From a virus, in IMG/VR virus record IMGVR_UViG_3300021420_000022, positions 28,393 through 92,392 of that record: a DNA stretch of 64,000 nucleotides; one strand, given 5' to 3'. Under the pieces are notes generated by a model. It ran no database searches. It was not told the origin of the DNA and was given only the letters and a program-made list of their open reading frames with translations. The translations under genes were made by a program, and so were the position numbers. Position 1 is the stretch's first letter. Every line of letters begins with the position of its first letter. This document shows, piece after piece, positions 28,365 through 58,748 of this stretch.

Positions 28365-28627
28365 AAGTTCGCGCTGGATCGAAGTACATCTTCTACCCGA
28401 ACATGCTCGACCGCATAGACGGTCGCACCGAGCTCGTACCCGGCTCCATCGTGACTGTAGTCCGGATGCCTGGCTGCCCGCCGCCGAACACGATGAATCA
28501 CGCGCATGTGAACTACAACGGCAGGTTCGCTGGGCTCGTCCACACTAACTCGCTCCACTCACTGAAGGACAAACAGCTCGTGATCGACGCTATTAAGCGC
28601 GATCTCGCGAAGGTGAAGCATGAATAG
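28361..28627 (+). CDS. Early hypothetical protein
   Basis: GGAGG SD, ATGA overlap. Confidence 0.6.
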   Translation: MKVRAGSKYIFYPNMLDRIDGRTELVPGSIVTVVRMPGCPPPNTMNHAHVNYNGRFAGLVHTNSLHSLKDKQLVIDAIKRDLAKVKHE

Positions 28628-43929: not shown

Positions 43930-45093
43930 ATGTTTAAAAAGGTAAAACCTGTACAGTTGGAGTGGAGCAGCATCCTTGAGCAATTTCCGCACTGTGATCC
44001 GCGTATCTTGCATGCGCCGAGCGAGTGCAAATACTGCGACATGCATCTGGATTGGCAAGCTCTGCGGCAAGCGTGGGGAATTGCTTTCACGAATTACGAA
44101 CCTGAGGGAAATGAACTTCCCTGCCCAGCAAATCATGCTCGTGGGGAGAAAGGTGATTTTTGGCAGGGAAATGTTGCGAAGCCCAATAATTCTTTTGAAT
44201 TTGATATACCCGCTAACGCAACAATCACTGGTGTATCAGTCTCTGCAACAGTAAATCCGACAGAATTCGCAAATCCCGCGCTTGACGCAATCACGACGCA
44301 GCCGGTCGTGCTGCCGAATCCGGAGCCGTCCACGATTCTGCCATGTATCCAGAAGGATGCCCACCCACCGTTAACTGTTAGTCCTGAAACAGTACAGGAG
44401 CTACTAACAACGGAATTGAAATGCTTTCATAAATCTTCGAATGATCTGACTCCGGCCCAGATTTCCGCACAGGCCGCACTTACCGCAGTCAAACCAGCGG
44501 CTCTTGCGAGCGCCGCAAACGAAGCGTTTGTTGATATGGCCGCCCTCGCTGCAACGTTGCCGCCAGAGCATCCGTTAAACGCTATCGTGCCGCCGCCAGC
44601 TGAAGCACCAAAGAAACGCGCACGTAAGCCAAGTGAAGCTCAACAAACGGCGGGTAGCTCAATGGTAGAGCACTCGGTCGATAACCGAGAGGTTGCAGGT
44701 TCGATGCCTGCCCCGCCGACCACTTCTGTGTCGCCGAGCGCCGTCATTCCGGAAAGTCAGCCATCGACGACACTGCCTGCGCAGCCTGTTGAGCCGCCAA
44801 AAGTCGAGAAGTTGTTGAACCCGGAGCAAGAGAAAGAGATAAAGGAACGACTGGCGAAGTACCGCAATGAGATTCTGCCAACCGGGGGGATGGTCCCAGT
44901 TGATCAGGTTGGCGGCGTCGAAATTCAGCTTCGCAAATACGTCGCGCAGTTCTGTCCGGCCAAGCCGAGCAGCAAAACATGGGGATACGATGACTGGAAG
45001 AACTTCGTAGGCTTCTTTGACAACATGGTTGCGACAGTTGGCGCTGCTGGACTCGTGCAGCATATTCAACGGAAGATTGGGATAGCAAAATAA
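43930..45093 (+). CDS. Hypothetical protein: Cys/His N-domain, Pro/Ala linker, C-domain
   Basis: GGAGG SD; FPHCD.RILHAP..C.YCD; stop coupled to the helicase start (TAATG). Confidence 0.7.
   Translation: MFKKVKPVQLEWSSILEQFPHCDPRILHAPSECKYCDMHLDWQALRQAWGIAFTNYEPEGNELPCPANHARGEKGDFWQGNVAKPNNSFEFDIPANATITGVSVSATVNPTEFANPALDAITTQPVVLPNPEPSTILPCIQKDAHPPLTVSPETVQELLTTELKCFHKSSNDLTPAQISAQAALTAVKPAALASAANEAFVDMAALAATLPPEHPLNAIVPPPAEAPKKRARKPSEAQQTAGSSMVEHSVDNREVAGSMPAPPTTSVSPSAVIPESQPSTTLPAQPVEPPKVEKLLNPEQEKEIKERLAKYRNEILPTGGMVPVDQVGGVEIQLRKYVAQFCPAKPSSKTWGYDDWKNFVGFFDNMVATVGAAGLVQHIQRKIGIAK
44648..44722 (+). tRNA. tRNA-Ile(GAU) embedded in a CDS
   Basis: Acceptor CGGCGGG/CCCGCCG + ACCA; D-arm GCTC/GAGC; anticodon stem CTCGG/CCGAG with loop TCGATAA; T-arm GCAGG-TTCGATG-CCTGC. 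Confidence 0.85.
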
Positions 45094-55553: not shown

Positions 55554-56162
55554 ATGCGCATCACGTGGAACGAAAATGAAAACCGCTTCGAAGCGCAGTT
55601 TAGCAAAGGCGACCAGTGGCGAAATGAGCAGCAACTTGCTTCGTCCGCTGGATTCCATACTGACGGCGCTCCGGCGTGGTGCTGGTTCACGGCGAAAGCT
55701 GCAGTTCTCACGAAACTCAAGGATAAAGTTGCAGCCGATAAATTACCAATTTCGCTTAGCGTCACCCGCTCGGCTCTCGACGCCTACAATCGTTTACGAG
55801 AAGCCGAAGAACAAGTCGAAGAACTCAAAAAGTACGCCAAAGAGCAAAAGAAACTTCAAAAGAAAGCGCAGGAACGCGTCCGTATCGAAGCTGACGGCGG
55901 CGATGATTCGGGATATACATCGAGCCATTACCACCCAGTTCCCGCCTATTGGGAGGGGAAGCAAGAAATTACGCGGGCTGATCTGCCCGCCGACGTTATG
56001 GCACGACTTGATAAGCGCGAACCCATTCCCCAACGGAGAGCGGAGCCGATAGGAAAATGCAGAGTCTGTGGAGATGCAACGTATGATCCGGACGAATTTG
56101 ATTTTTGTCTCTGGTGCAGCGGACGCGGTGAAGAACAATTTCTCGATGAATTATTGTCTTGA
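55554..56162 (+). CDS. Hypothetical protein
   Basis: AGF.....W motif; coiled coil; CRVCG...CLWC. Confidence 0.6.
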   Translation: MRITWNENENRFEAQFSKGDQWRNEQQLASSAGFHTDGAPAWCWFTAKAAVLTKLKDKVAADKLPISLSVTRSALDAYNRLREAEEQVEELKKYAKEQKKLQKKAQERVRIEADGGDDSGYTSSHYHPVPAYWEGKQEITRADLPADVMARLDKREPIPQRRAEPIGKCRVCGDATYDPDEFDFCLWCSGRGEEQFLDELLS

Positions 56163-56187
56163 CAAGCTTTTCGAATTTTGCTAGTCT
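56159..56187 (+). promoter_or_regulatory. Sigma70-type promoter for the EndoVII-tmRNA unit
   Basis: TTGACA-17-TAGTCT with TG extension. Confidence 0.75.
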
Positions 56188-56242
56188 GAAGTTGTAAGCA
56201 TCTCTTGTCGGGCTCCTATCGGAACCGACTGGTGGAGGCGTA

Positions 56243-56605
56243 ATGCACGGAAAGCTTTATTATGACCAGCGCAAATCACTCGGCTTATGCCCACGATGCG
56301 GAAATTCAGTTGACGGTCGAGTGATTTGCCTTCCGTGTCTTGCAAAGCAAAAGTTGTCTAAGTTAGACCTATCACCCGAGGAAACCGAAAAAGCGAGAAC
56401 CTCCTTTCTGAATTTTGACGGAACATGTCAATGCTGCGGTTCGAGTGATCCCGGTGGAAAGAAGGGTTGGTGTATTGACCACGATCACATTCGAAGAGTT
56501 TTTCGAGGAATCATATGCCAACACTGTAACATAATGCTAGGTCGGGCTCACGATCAAATTGAATGGCTCTTCGCGGGCATCAAATATTTGAGAAAATTTT
56601 TATGA
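56243..56605 (+). CDS. Endonuclease VII-family (HNH) protein
   Basis: CQCCG...IDHDH....RGIIC..CN.MLG..D; stop overlaps the tmRNA acceptor piece. Confidence 0.85.
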   Translation: MHGKLYYDQRKSLGLCPRCGNSVDGRVICLPCLAKQKLSKLDLSPEETEKARTSFLNFDGTCQCCGSSDPGGKKGWCIDHDHIRRVFRGIICQHCNIMLGRAHDQIEWLFAGIKYLRKFL

Positions 56606-56935
56606 GTTACGCACGTCAATGTCTCATGGTCACTCACGCGGACGCGGGTTCGATCCCCGCTAGGTCCACCAATCCTATCACGGCCTTGTTAATTCACATG
56701 GCCGAGATAACTTCTGCGGGCCTAAATTGGTTTCGACGGGTGAGATTGATGGTGGGAAGCTCGTGCCGTAAGTGGACACTGTCGATATCAGTGTACCAAA
56801 CTAAAAATGCCATGCGAATGCTGGCGAAGGCTGTAAGCTTTGTGAAGTCGCTGTTCACCATGCCGAATTTTGGTATGGAAGCAGCCGCTTCCATGGCCTA
56901 GAGCCGGGAGGGGCTGTCCGAAAGATGGCCCCTTC
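56602..56935 (+). ncRNA. ssrA: Circularly permuted (two-piece) tmRNA
   Basis: Acceptor piece ends GGAC-GCGGG-TTCGATC-CCCGC-TAGGTCC-ACCA (56671); 46-nt intervening segment; coding piece starts GGGCCTA-AATTGGTTTCGAC (56718); G3-U70 pair; tag ORF 56809-56901; 3' hairpin. Confidence 0.9.
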
Positions 56936-56958
56936 ACTTTCAAAAATAGGAGACGACA

Positions 56959-57339
56959 ATGGCAGTGAAAAAGAAGGGCAAGAAAAAGAGCAGGAAATCA
57001 CCGAAGAAAGTAACAGGAGAGAAAATGATCAAGCTGACTGACAAGAACGGCGAGGCACTCAACCTGCTCGCGACTCGGGCGTCTGATGAATCGCATTACG
57101 CTACGCGGAGTGCGATCCGTAAGGCCCTGGACGAAACCGTAGAGTACAACGGCGGCGGATATTCTCAGATTACCCGCGAGCCGCTTGTCGAACTTCAGAT
57201 CCGACGAAATGACCGCGACGATGTCACCTACACTGAGTCGCTGACGGTCGGCGTCATATTCAAGCGCGGGATTCTTCAGTTCGGCTGCCACACTTTCAAC
57301 CGGGCGACCTCGAAGCAGATCGTTCAATGGGCGCGATGA
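56959..57339 (+). CDS. Hypothetical protein between the two tag cassettes
   Basis: AGGAG SD; Lys-rich N-terminus. Confidence 0.65.
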   Translation: MAVKKKGKKKSRKSPKKVTGEKMIKLTDKNGEALNLLATRASDESHYATRSAIRKALDETVEYNGGGYSQITREPLVELQIRRNDRDDVTYTESLTVGVIFKRGILQFGCHTFNRATSKQIVQWAR

Positions 57340-57419
57340 TCGGCAAGACACAGGAAGACATCATTCGCGTTCGGGAATTGCTGGGACCGGTCAACGATCT
57401 TGTGCCGGACTCGGTAATT

Positions 57420-57607
57420 ATTGATGGTGGGAAGCTCGTGCCGAGAATGGACACCTCGTATAAAAGCGTACCAAACCACAAAAGCCAAGTCTATTCTGGC
57501 TAAGGTGGCTAGCTTCTTGAAGTCGCTGGTTCCTGCTCTCCCGAGCATGGACTTCGCGCCTCAGGCGGCCTAGTCGCTGGGTGGGGTCGCCCGAAAGGTG
57601 GCCCCAC
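57420..57607 (+). ncRNA. Second tmRNA mRNA-like cassette (pairing segment, PK1-like element, tag ORF, hairpin), no tRNA-like 5' strand
   Basis: 24-nt identity to 56745-56768; tag ORF 57484-57573 AKSILAKVASFLKSLVPALPSMDFAPQAA; homologous CGAAA-loop hairpin. Confidence 0.8.
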
Positions 57608-57629
57608 TTATTTCAAAAAGGAGAACTAG

Positions 57630-57857
57630 ATGAGCGCAAAAGTTATGGGGTCGACGCCACGCGAACATGTTACGCCGAGAGAAATGCGATGCGGTCAGAT
57701 CGGAACGTTCAGATATGACGGTCAACAAATTCTCGCGCTACGGACTTTCTCCGAGATCGTTGATCTGAACGATGCCGCGTCAACATGGGGCCTTGACGCG
57801 TCCTATGATATCGAGTTGCTTCCGGCGGGGACCAAAATCGAAGTTGAGGCCGAGTAG
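57630..57857 (+). CDS. Hypothetical protein
   Basis: AAGGAG SD. Confidence 0.65.
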   Translation: MSAKVMGSTPREHVTPREMRCGQIGTFRYDGQQILALRTFSEIVDLNDAASTWGLDASYDIELLPAGTKIEVEAE

Positions 57858-57884
57858 AAGTAAAATCATGACGGGAGGAAACAA

Positions 57885-58439
57885 ATGAAGGGCAGAATCA
57901 AAGCAGTAGTTTTGGGGCTCGTGCTTGCTCTTGCAGTACTCGTCGCAGTTCCGTCGTACGCGCAGACCGTTGCGTTGTCCGCCGCATTTACATTCAACAG
58001 CAGTTCGCAAATCGTGTCATGGAATGGGAGTGACCCGTCTAACCCGCCATTTCCGTATGAAATGGGCGCGATTAGCCTCAACTCCAGCTTCGGTGGCGGC
58101 TACGGTTCCGGACTTGACGTTCCGTTTCAACTCGGGTTCCTGAACAACGGATTTCTCTCACCGTGTAATCCGATAGCGTTCGGAGCCAAAGTTTGGACTA
58201 ACGGCACCGGTACTCGCACCGGAGACACGTTCACAGTATCGGGCAGCACGACGTGCCCATACTTCACGGGCGAATGGGGCACCTATGAGAACAGCAACAA
58301 TCGGTTGGACGGCTTTAGCGTGACGGCCAGCTACGTTCGCACTTCGCACACGGCGTGCCGCTACGGTCGTTGCACCACGTACTACACCGATACGCTGCAA
58401 GGCGGCAGCGGGGTGGTTACAGACAGCACGATCAACTAA
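57885..58439 (+). CDS. Secreted hypothetical protein
   Basis: Signal peptide ending SYA-Q; beta-rich. Confidence 0.65.
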   Translation: MKGRIKAVVLGLVLALAVLVAVPSYAQTVALSAAFTFNSSSQIVSWNGSDPSNPPFPYEMGAISLNSSFGGGYGSGLDVPFQLGFLNNGFLSPCNPIAFGAKVWTNGTGTRTGDTFTVSGSTTCPYFTGEWGTYENSNNRLDGFSVTASYVRTSHTACRYGRCTTYYTDTLQGGSGVVTDSTIN

Positions 58440-58496: not shown

Positions 58497-58748
58497 ATGG
58501 CAGCGAAAACTAAGAAGGCTAAGAAGGCCACGAAAACGAAAGTAAAGAAAGCAAAGACTGTGAAGAAGACCTCGGCGGTCGATCCGATCTCAGAAGTTTC
58601 GGACACGGCATTCGTCAGTGACTACGAGGATCGACAGCTGGAGCAACAGTTCATCGAAGGCCTCGACGACCTTGATTTGAACGACGAGACCGATCCCTAT
58701 GATCATGAATATGATTATGAGATCAATGAAGATGAGGACGAGCTCTAA
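58497..58748 (+). CDS. Bipolar basic/acidic small protein
   Basis: Lys-rich N-half, Asp/Glu-rich C-half; AAGGAG SD. Confidence 0.65.
   Translation: MAAKTKKAKKATKTKVKKAKTVKKTSAVDPISEVSDTAFVSDYEDRQLEQQFIEGLDDLDLNDETDPYDHEYDYEINEDEDEL

Follow-up and report, generated by a model that had tools for sequence, protein, structure and literature searches.

The closest described relatives of the element considered here are the two-piece transfer-messenger RNAs (tmRNAs) of the Rfam families RF04321 and RF01850, among them that of the OM43 phage Melnitz (PMC9004378, PMC11915505). In the available parts of these sources, the gene runs from an acceptor piece through a spacer to a coding piece, and the segment between the two pieces is cut out in processing (PMC11915505). 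A gene with this order occurs in a 64,000-nucleotide (nt) stretch of phage DNA, hereafter the window, which forms the final 64 kb (positions 28,393 to 92,392) of the 92,392-nt IMG/VR contig IMGVR_UViG_3300021420_000022 (completeness estimate 72%). Further points of likeness are the T-arm with an encoded CCA, a G3-U pair, a D-loop analogue, the P2 helix, the PK1 element, an alanine resume codon in the window gene and in most of its relatives and, in the relatives, tags that end in ...ALAA or ...AMAA. Unlike the usual two-piece tmRNA, this gene specifies tags of about 30 residues, where 10 is the most frequent length in the available part of PMC11915505, and one long hairpin takes the place of PK2-PK4. 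The source is soil, whereas the known phage two-piece tmRNAs are mostly marine as far as the available part of PMC9004378 describes them. A final difference is an extra, partial coding piece (cassette 2) downstream of the complete one (cassette 1). The locus is best read as the fresh scar of a mosaic insertion in a phage tmRNA gene and not as a switchable ribosome-rescue system. Cassette 2 is probably the original 3' half of the gene, recently displaced by a 675-bp mosaic insertion, with no built-in switch.

The Rfam covariance model (CM) detects one permuted tmRNA at 56611-56812 (RF04321, 66.7 bits against a gathering score of 47). No second tRNA-like domain or RF04321 match is present in the window or in the whole 92-kb contig, even at relaxed thresholds. 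All features described below lie on the plus strand, and the permuted order is evident from the position of the CCA (56669-56671) upstream of the 5' acceptor strand (56718-56724). According to the RF04321 alignment and the sequence, the acceptor piece (56611-56671) comprises the P2 5' strands, the T-arm, the 3' acceptor strand (56661-56667), the discriminator and the encoded CCA. At the third acceptor pair a G stands opposite a U (GGGCCUA versus UAGGUCC), corresponding to the predicted G3-U70 pair for alanyl-tRNA synthetase (AlaRS). After an intervening segment (56672-56717) that the alignment shows to vary in length and sequence among relatives, the 5' end of the coding piece (56718-56744) supplies the acceptor 5' strand GGGCCUA, the D-loop analogue and the P2a strand, each in single copy by sequence and CM alignment. 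The next 24 nt (56745-56768) pair in the CM alignment as the distal P2 strand and are the first copy of a repeat. They are followed by the PK1 of cassette 1 (56769-56808; allele A; fold of -10.6 kcal/mol) and by tag frame 1 (56809-56901), which has a GCC resume codon at 56809, 30 codons, a TAG at 56899-56901 and a tag ending in ...SMA, as read from the open reading frame (ORF) and by comparison with translated variants. A 12-bp hairpin with a CGAAA loop (56907-56935; -24.2 kcal/mol, z -2.6, backed by pair counts) closes the cassette.

As the initial annotation had claimed, a second module begins 675 nt further on with 24 identical nucleotides. In a repeat search and by blastn (E 1.5e-17 for copy 1 versus copy 2), 56745-56853 matches 57420-57528 over 109 nt at 76% with a spacing of 675, and 56903-56946 matches 57576-57619 over 44 nt at 75% with a spacing of 673. 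The identical part (56745-56768 and 57420-57443) is an exact 24-mer pair of which, by our estimate, about 1e-5 would be expected by chance in 64 kb. The homology begins abruptly with the second repeat copy (57420-57443) and continues through the PK1 of cassette 2 (57444-57483; allele B by identity and pair counts). Tag frame 2 (57484-57573) was identified by ORF reading and consists of a GCC resume codon, 29 codons and TAG; its tag ends in ...QAA and lies near the family consensus. The end hairpin (57578-57610) has 14 bp, a CGAAA loop and one U-A to C-G compensatory change (-25.5 kcal/mol, z -3.3, pair counts). This inventory had been listed in the initial annotation and is confirmed throughout; by it, the part of a coding piece from the P2 strand through PK1 and the tag frame to the terminal hairpin is present in cassette 2.

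What cassette 2 does not have is the front of such a piece, since the 5' acceptor strand, the D-loop analogue and P2a are all missing, and 57340-57419 contains no acceptor-strand or D-loop motif. The lack of the acceptor strand and D-loop analogue had also been recognized earlier, and it agrees with the single tmRNA found by the Rfam covariance search. A second acceptor strand upstream of cassette 2 was considered by eye and rejected, the sole match being a 5-nt GGACC in which an A-U would replace the G-U pair. One correction concerns the partner of the 24-nt strand, which had been placed at 56602-56620 and which the CM alignment puts at 56611-56641. As a separate observation, the PK1 region of cassette 2 (57403-57470) gives a sub-threshold Rfam match to GP20-b (RF03003; 21.8 bits versus 36.2, E 0.068), raising the question of kinship between the GP20-b motif and tmRNA PK1 elements.

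The public runs that hold this stretch are soil metagenomes, and two of them, the source run (X1) and a run from another study (X2), are compared here on the basis of assembled contigs, which drop rare variants. In X2, a 334-nt contig joins 56633-56744 (one difference) straight to 57420-57641 (no difference). The join omits exactly 675 nt and falls inside the repeat, whose 24 letters fit either side. No X2 contig covers 56749-57419. The sole cassette of X2 is 100% identical to cassette 2, including the tag frame, and follows directly on the coding-piece 5' end (56718-56744), which is common to whichever cassette comes next. Judged by its sequence, cassette 2 is a genuine coding-piece module, the sole and presumably working one in a near-identical strain. 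The X1 contigs show the double form only, with no 675-nt deletion joint. An allele resembling that of a related phage, L008, is also present in X1 at about one tenth of the depth; since such a relative co-occurs in the source sample, partners for recombination are at hand.

Relatives were located by DNA patterns and by a conserved neighboring protein of 202 amino acids (aa). L002/L004 and L008 are close to the window phage, and L005/L006/L011 are more distant (52% identity in the neighboring protein). Each has one permuted tmRNA (77.7-79.5 bits) with a single cassette, and immediately behind the cassette stands a homologue of ORF75 (L002, L008) or a lysine-rich gene (L005). With cassette 2 as the query, the whole records of L002, L005 and L006 yield one copy each, and only the contig of the window has two. 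Translated variants in a protein database add three more cases of a single tRNA-like domain with a cassette; the single-cassette tally excludes the DNA context of the variants P0003, P0025, P0026 and P0028. The initial annotation had suggested a search of related phages for the same architecture, and the relatives found carry a single cassette only.

Turning to the 675-nt interval between the copies, it is a patchwork of cassette 1, the start of a lysine-rich gene, a small gene (ORF104) and a final 84 nt. The lysine-rich part (56959-57024) is a 5' remnant of about 22 codons that has a ribosome-binding site upstream and is fused in frame to ORF104, as seen in DNA alignment with L005. Hairpin 1, the ribosome-binding site and the 22 or so codons together form one contiguous match to L005:5989-6076 (77% over 93 nt), and in L005 the lysine-rich (acidic) gene stands directly behind the tmRNA. 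The stub is also similar to the beginning of the lysine-rich gene that the window itself carries at 58497. ORF104 (57025-57339) appears to be the cargo of the insert. A homologue of 99 aa with 71% identity by BLASTP (75% in alignment) begins at an internal Met of the fused frame, and the family counts 19 representatives of about 90-110 aa. In the L005 phage a copy with 36% identity lies some 6.6 kb downstream of the tmRNA; that copy adjoins a 298-aa frame (L014:69-965, in the record of L005) that looks by eye like a tyrosine recombinase. According to the ORF list, a 55-codon ORF (57336-57503) overlaps the end of ORF104 at ATGA and runs over 57419/57420 into cassette 2 in another frame, and it is probably chimeric or truncated. 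For its first 28 residues, no counterpart turned up in any of the retrieved DNA. Neither ORF104 nor the 55-codon frame belongs to a Pfam or PHROG family, and Pfam and PHROG searches find no recombinase and no tyrosine or serine integrase in the interval; the adjacent gene encodes an endonuclease VII/HNH-type nuclease. Beyond cassette 2 lies ORF75 (57630-57857), identified by synteny. Since this neighbor stands directly behind the single cassette in L002 and L008 as well, cassette 2 appears to be the resident copy.

The two cassettes also represent two forms of PK1. Allele A, carried by cassette 1, by L002 and also by two variants in the database, folds as an extended hairpin of 8 bp with a single bulge and a weak S1. 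Allele B, found in cassette 2, L008 and the distant L005, is an H-type pseudoknot with S1 formed by CGAG/CUCG and S2 by GGACAC with GCGU-A-CC. Within an allele, 36-37 of the 40 positions are identical, and between alleles 24-28 of 40; the PK1 of cassette 1 matches that of L002 at 36/40 and that of cassette 2 at 26/40, while cassette 2 matches L008 and L005 at 36-37/40. The Rfam PK1 stem is fitted better by cassette 2 than by cassette 1, and the allele A of L002 carries a compensatory A-U to G-C change relative to cassette 1. In a five-sequence alignment, the proposed stems are 91% paired versus about 40% with slid partners, and in five pairs both partners have changed; among these, the hairpin of each cassette has one compensatory change of its own. 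Either allele serves as the sole PK1 in some variant.

L002 and L008 are instructive in this respect. Their PK1 elements agree at 28/40, their P2 strands at 23/24, their tags are one residue apart and their end hairpins are near identical. Since they differ in PK1 and are nearly the same on either side, recombination shuffles the tmRNA gene internally. The contrast can also be put as two distinct PK1 alleles on near-identical tmRNAs, with 12 of 40 positions differing between flanks that are 96-97% identical. The tags of the family have 29-32 residues; the first half is conserved, cationic and amphipathic, and the second varies. Those of the four single-cassette relatives end in ...ALAA or ...AMAA, the classical tmRNA ending, which supports the tag reading frame. 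Three of the four resume at Ala (GCC) and L005 resumes at Val (GTC).

In the initial annotation, the two tags were taken to differ at synonymous sites, and from this selection on both was argued. The first point does not stand, as the first 15 codons contain about five synonymous and seven non-synonymous differences, and selection on both cannot be inferred. The dN/dS ratio is below 1, on 15 alignable codons only, and it is silent on selection of the orphan because the divergence predates the joining of the two cassettes and cassette 2 is identical to the working copy of the sister strain. The perfect state of the orphan may instead reflect its youth, since the X2 and window forms are separated by one event and almost no point changes.

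Because all relatives have a single cassette and the interval is mosaic, the double form most plausibly arose by insertion. A 675-bp mosaic segment would have entered by recombination with the tmRNA locus of a related phage, bringing the foreign cassette 1 with it. The left crossover may lie inside the conserved tRNA-like/P2 sequence, and the right joint, at 57419/57420, may be illegitimate. The gene in use would now consist of the acceptor piece and the coding piece with cassette 1 at its end. One transcript probably starts at a promoter-like site (56159-56187) and takes in the nuclease gene, the tmRNA precursor and the genes behind it; such read-through is likely because the hairpins lack a U-tract and are followed by the next genes after no more than about 20 nt. 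Processing would yield the acceptor piece and the cassette 1 coding piece, and tag 1 would be added with the SmpB of the host, no SmpB gene being present in the known 72% of the phage genome. The orphan would probably be transcribed only as part of the operon mRNA. Its P2 strand could pair with the acceptor piece, but no chargeable molecule would result in the absence of P1, the D-loop analogue and P2a, and cassette 2 is judged to be inert in the window phage. The insert could also be lost, in one direction only, by recombination between the 24-nt repeats; such a loss would be aided by the approximately 200 nt of 76% homology and would restore the tRNA-like domain with cassette 2.

Several observations weigh against this displacement by insertion. 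The X2 form could derive from that of the window by deletion and not be its ancestor, so that the order of events might be the reverse. The tag of cassette 1 is the outlier of the family with its atypical ...SMA end, and the attached cassette is not obviously the better one. Cassette 2 shows no decay in its frame, PK1 or hairpin, which would also fit retention by selection. The final 84 nt of the interval, 57340-57419 included, match nothing in the retrieved DNA. No donor phage was found either, as the back-translated tag of cassette 1 gave one chance match in IMG/VR. Finally, the public runs that hold the stretch include no listed RNA run.

The reverse order of events, with the double form as the parent, is unlikely. 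Recombination between the repeats would then delete 675 nt and replace tag 1 and allele A by tag 2 and allele B, one-way and unprogrammed, and the population would hold two tmRNA versions with the orphan as a spare. In favor of this order, the exact predicted deletion product is found in the near-identical X2 background, a perfect 24-nt repeat followed by about 200 nt of 76% homology is in place, and cassette 2 is entirely intact. However, the product comes from another sample and study, the joint is absent from the contigs of the source run, and no recombinase lies beside the repeats. The relatives, all single, indicate that the double form began as an insertion, and X2 fits equally well as that ancestor; a deletion, moreover, is irreversible without a second genome. 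The initial annotation had offered such a deletion as one use of cassette 2. A form lacking the 675 nt, with its junction in the 24-nt repeat, does exist in X2, but as a difference between strains and not as a switch within a population.

A more elaborate version, which we regard as distinctly improbable, has the tag modules exchangeable and a silent spare kept. Recombination at P2 would move the population between ...SMA and ...QAA tags and between two PK1 forms, tag diversity would be adaptive, and X1 and X2 would be a snapshot of the process. If this were true, the diversity could alter which host protease or adaptor sees the tagged proteins. Of the switchable system first proposed, the anatomy and the predicted junction hold; against it stand the lack of a recombinase, an interval made of unrelated pieces and relatives that are single. 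A programmed DNA switch (invertase, shufflon or cassette-type phase variation) has no support, with no recombinase found beside the repeats and one form in the contigs of the source run, which would miss rare variants; an integrase-type island was ruled out with an insert that has no integrase.

It is very unlikely that cassette 2 acts as an RNA in its own right, its P2 strand pairing in trans with the acceptor piece either to build a three-piece tmRNA with tag 2 or to titrate or regulate that piece. Over 24 nt, the strand does not differ from its counterpart in the working coding piece, and cassette 2 lies on the transcribed strand within the operon, behind a hairpin 1 that has no U-tract and would probably be read through. 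Yet a complex without the G3-U acceptor strand, the D-loop analogue and P2a would not be chargeable by AlaRS, and no known processing yields a third piece holding only the missing parts. The working coding piece, besides, comes from the same precursor in cis and can form 14 more base pairs with the acceptor piece. None of the relatives shares the layout, and an ORF crosses the front of cassette 2. Both the three-piece tmRNA and the decoy or regulator entertained in the initial annotation are left without support.

Least of all should the layout be a stitching of two co-occurring strains at a shared 24-mer, an extremely remote prospect: a second related tmRNA allele does occur at low depth in the source sample, but the independent Logan assembly of the source run has 56715-58000 in a single unbroken contig that takes in both junctions, with an even depth of about 22, and the IMG/VR contig agrees. 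The word length of Logan, taken as 31, is longer than the 24-nt repeat, and together with the unbroken contig this argues against an assembly artefact.

Upstream of the tmRNA, the promoter-like site (56159-56187), read from the sequence, consists of TTGACA, 17 nt and TAGTCT. A site occurs at the same place after the 202-aa gene in the relatives, with TTGACA-N17-TAGATT/TATATT in L008, L009 and L005, although a consensus promoter scan of the window did not call the one at 56159-56187. The transcript that covers the nuclease gene, the tmRNA precursor and what follows likely starts here. The nuclease gene (56243-56605) lies between promoter and tmRNA and encodes an endonuclease VII/HNH-type protein of 120 aa (Pfam PF02945, 2.7e-15; PHROG endonuclease VII). 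It is missing at the corresponding site in L002, L008 and L005 and present in X2 (contigs over 56205-56579, about 100%). One might speculate that a free-standing homing nuclease beside a tmRNA could drive local recombination and allele shuffling. A leader with a G-rich box and a small hairpin is conserved upstream of the tmRNA in the relatives (L002:5640-5720, L008:2195-2260, L005:5650-5712, L007:1445-1510); in the window only its last part is left, as the ribosome-binding region of the nuclease gene (56228-56240).

The tmRNA gene itself is embedded in an open frame of 99-186 codons that runs from the T-arm through the spacer and PK1 into the tag (56563-56901 in the window; L002:5603-6028). 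The spacers vary in length yet remain in frame, and discovery through protein searches biases toward open frames. In six variants (P0023-P0028), gene callers have annotated the tmRNA gene as a hypothetical protein. ARAGORN does find the permuted tmRNA but miscalls the tag, placing it in the wrong frame and position in the region of the lysine-rich stub and ORF104 (56579-57132). These cases carry a warning for annotation: an ARAGORN tag may be a miscall, a tmRNA may be listed as a hypothetical protein, and an orphan cassette is not a second tmRNA. Elsewhere in the window, a tRNA-Ile(GAU) at 44648-44722 (Rfam, 68 bits) lies on the same strand inside a 387-codon open frame (43930-45093). Another record, IMGVR_UViG_3300012942_000004, contains an apparent mini tmRNA of about 90 nt at L003:11474-11560 that consists of the tRNA-like domain only, with a 5' acceptor strand, D-loop analogue, short stem, T-arm and 3' acceptor strand and with no tag frame. 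Rfam makes no call there at gathering score. As far as the available part of PMC4131195 describes it, mycobacteriophage DS6A comes to mind as a parallel.

Beyond the relatives described above, searches for further copies gave little. The public phage genomes searched hold nothing that matches the tmRNA locus, and the exact 24-mer occurs in IMG/VR only in its own record. Single-protein searches of IMG/VR with ORF75 and ORF126 returned no relative, an alignment-based search with ORF104 returned no locus, and ORF75 matches only itself in the protein database. Among 185,579 species genomes, the cassette pattern has 28 matches versus about 35 estimated by chance. None of the 28 resembles the locus by blastn, and so they provide no clue to a prophage or host.

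The insertion scar can be set beside three groups of known systems. Genomic islands in tRNA and tmRNA genes, in the available parts of Islander (PMC4383910) and PMC4131195, share with it a regenerated gene, a displaced 3' part, direct orientation and an identical core (here 24 nt), and an empty-site form likewise exists in X2. Unlike those islands, the insert has 675 bp and no integrase, its target is a phage gene and not a chromosomal one, and its right joint looks illegitimate instead of site-specific. The displaced piece also differs, being not the T-arm/acceptor end but the whole tag module. This follows from the permuted gene, behind which an insertion displaces an entire tag cassette in place of a short gene end. 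A second group is the mosaic insertion of genes by recombination between related phages (morons and cassette exchange). At the present locus a small cargo gene stands behind the tmRNA and relatives occur with and without the cargo; the duplicated part reaches back to the P2 strand and takes in PK1 and the entire tag frame, which gives the locus two different tags.

The significance of the locus lies in its natural combination of one tRNA-like domain with a different message module in each of two near-identical strains. It shows the mRNA-like half of a permuted tmRNA to be a module that can be swapped in evolution. In the literature on phage two-piece tmRNAs, as far as its available text goes, interchangeable tag modules are not mentioned, although no search by that term was made. 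The third comparison is with tmRNAs made in the laboratory, in which a hairpin can stand in for PK1 and another tag template for the native one, according to work cited in the available part of PMC4236655. The present variants are natural, come from uncultured phages and are known here from their sequence alone. Like the laboratory constructs, they present PK1 alleles A and B and differing tags as sole cassettes on near-identical tRNA-like domains. They could serve as matched natural variants for testing the long amphipathic tags of phages, with a hairpin versus a pseudoknot PK1 and an ...SMA versus an ...AA ending.

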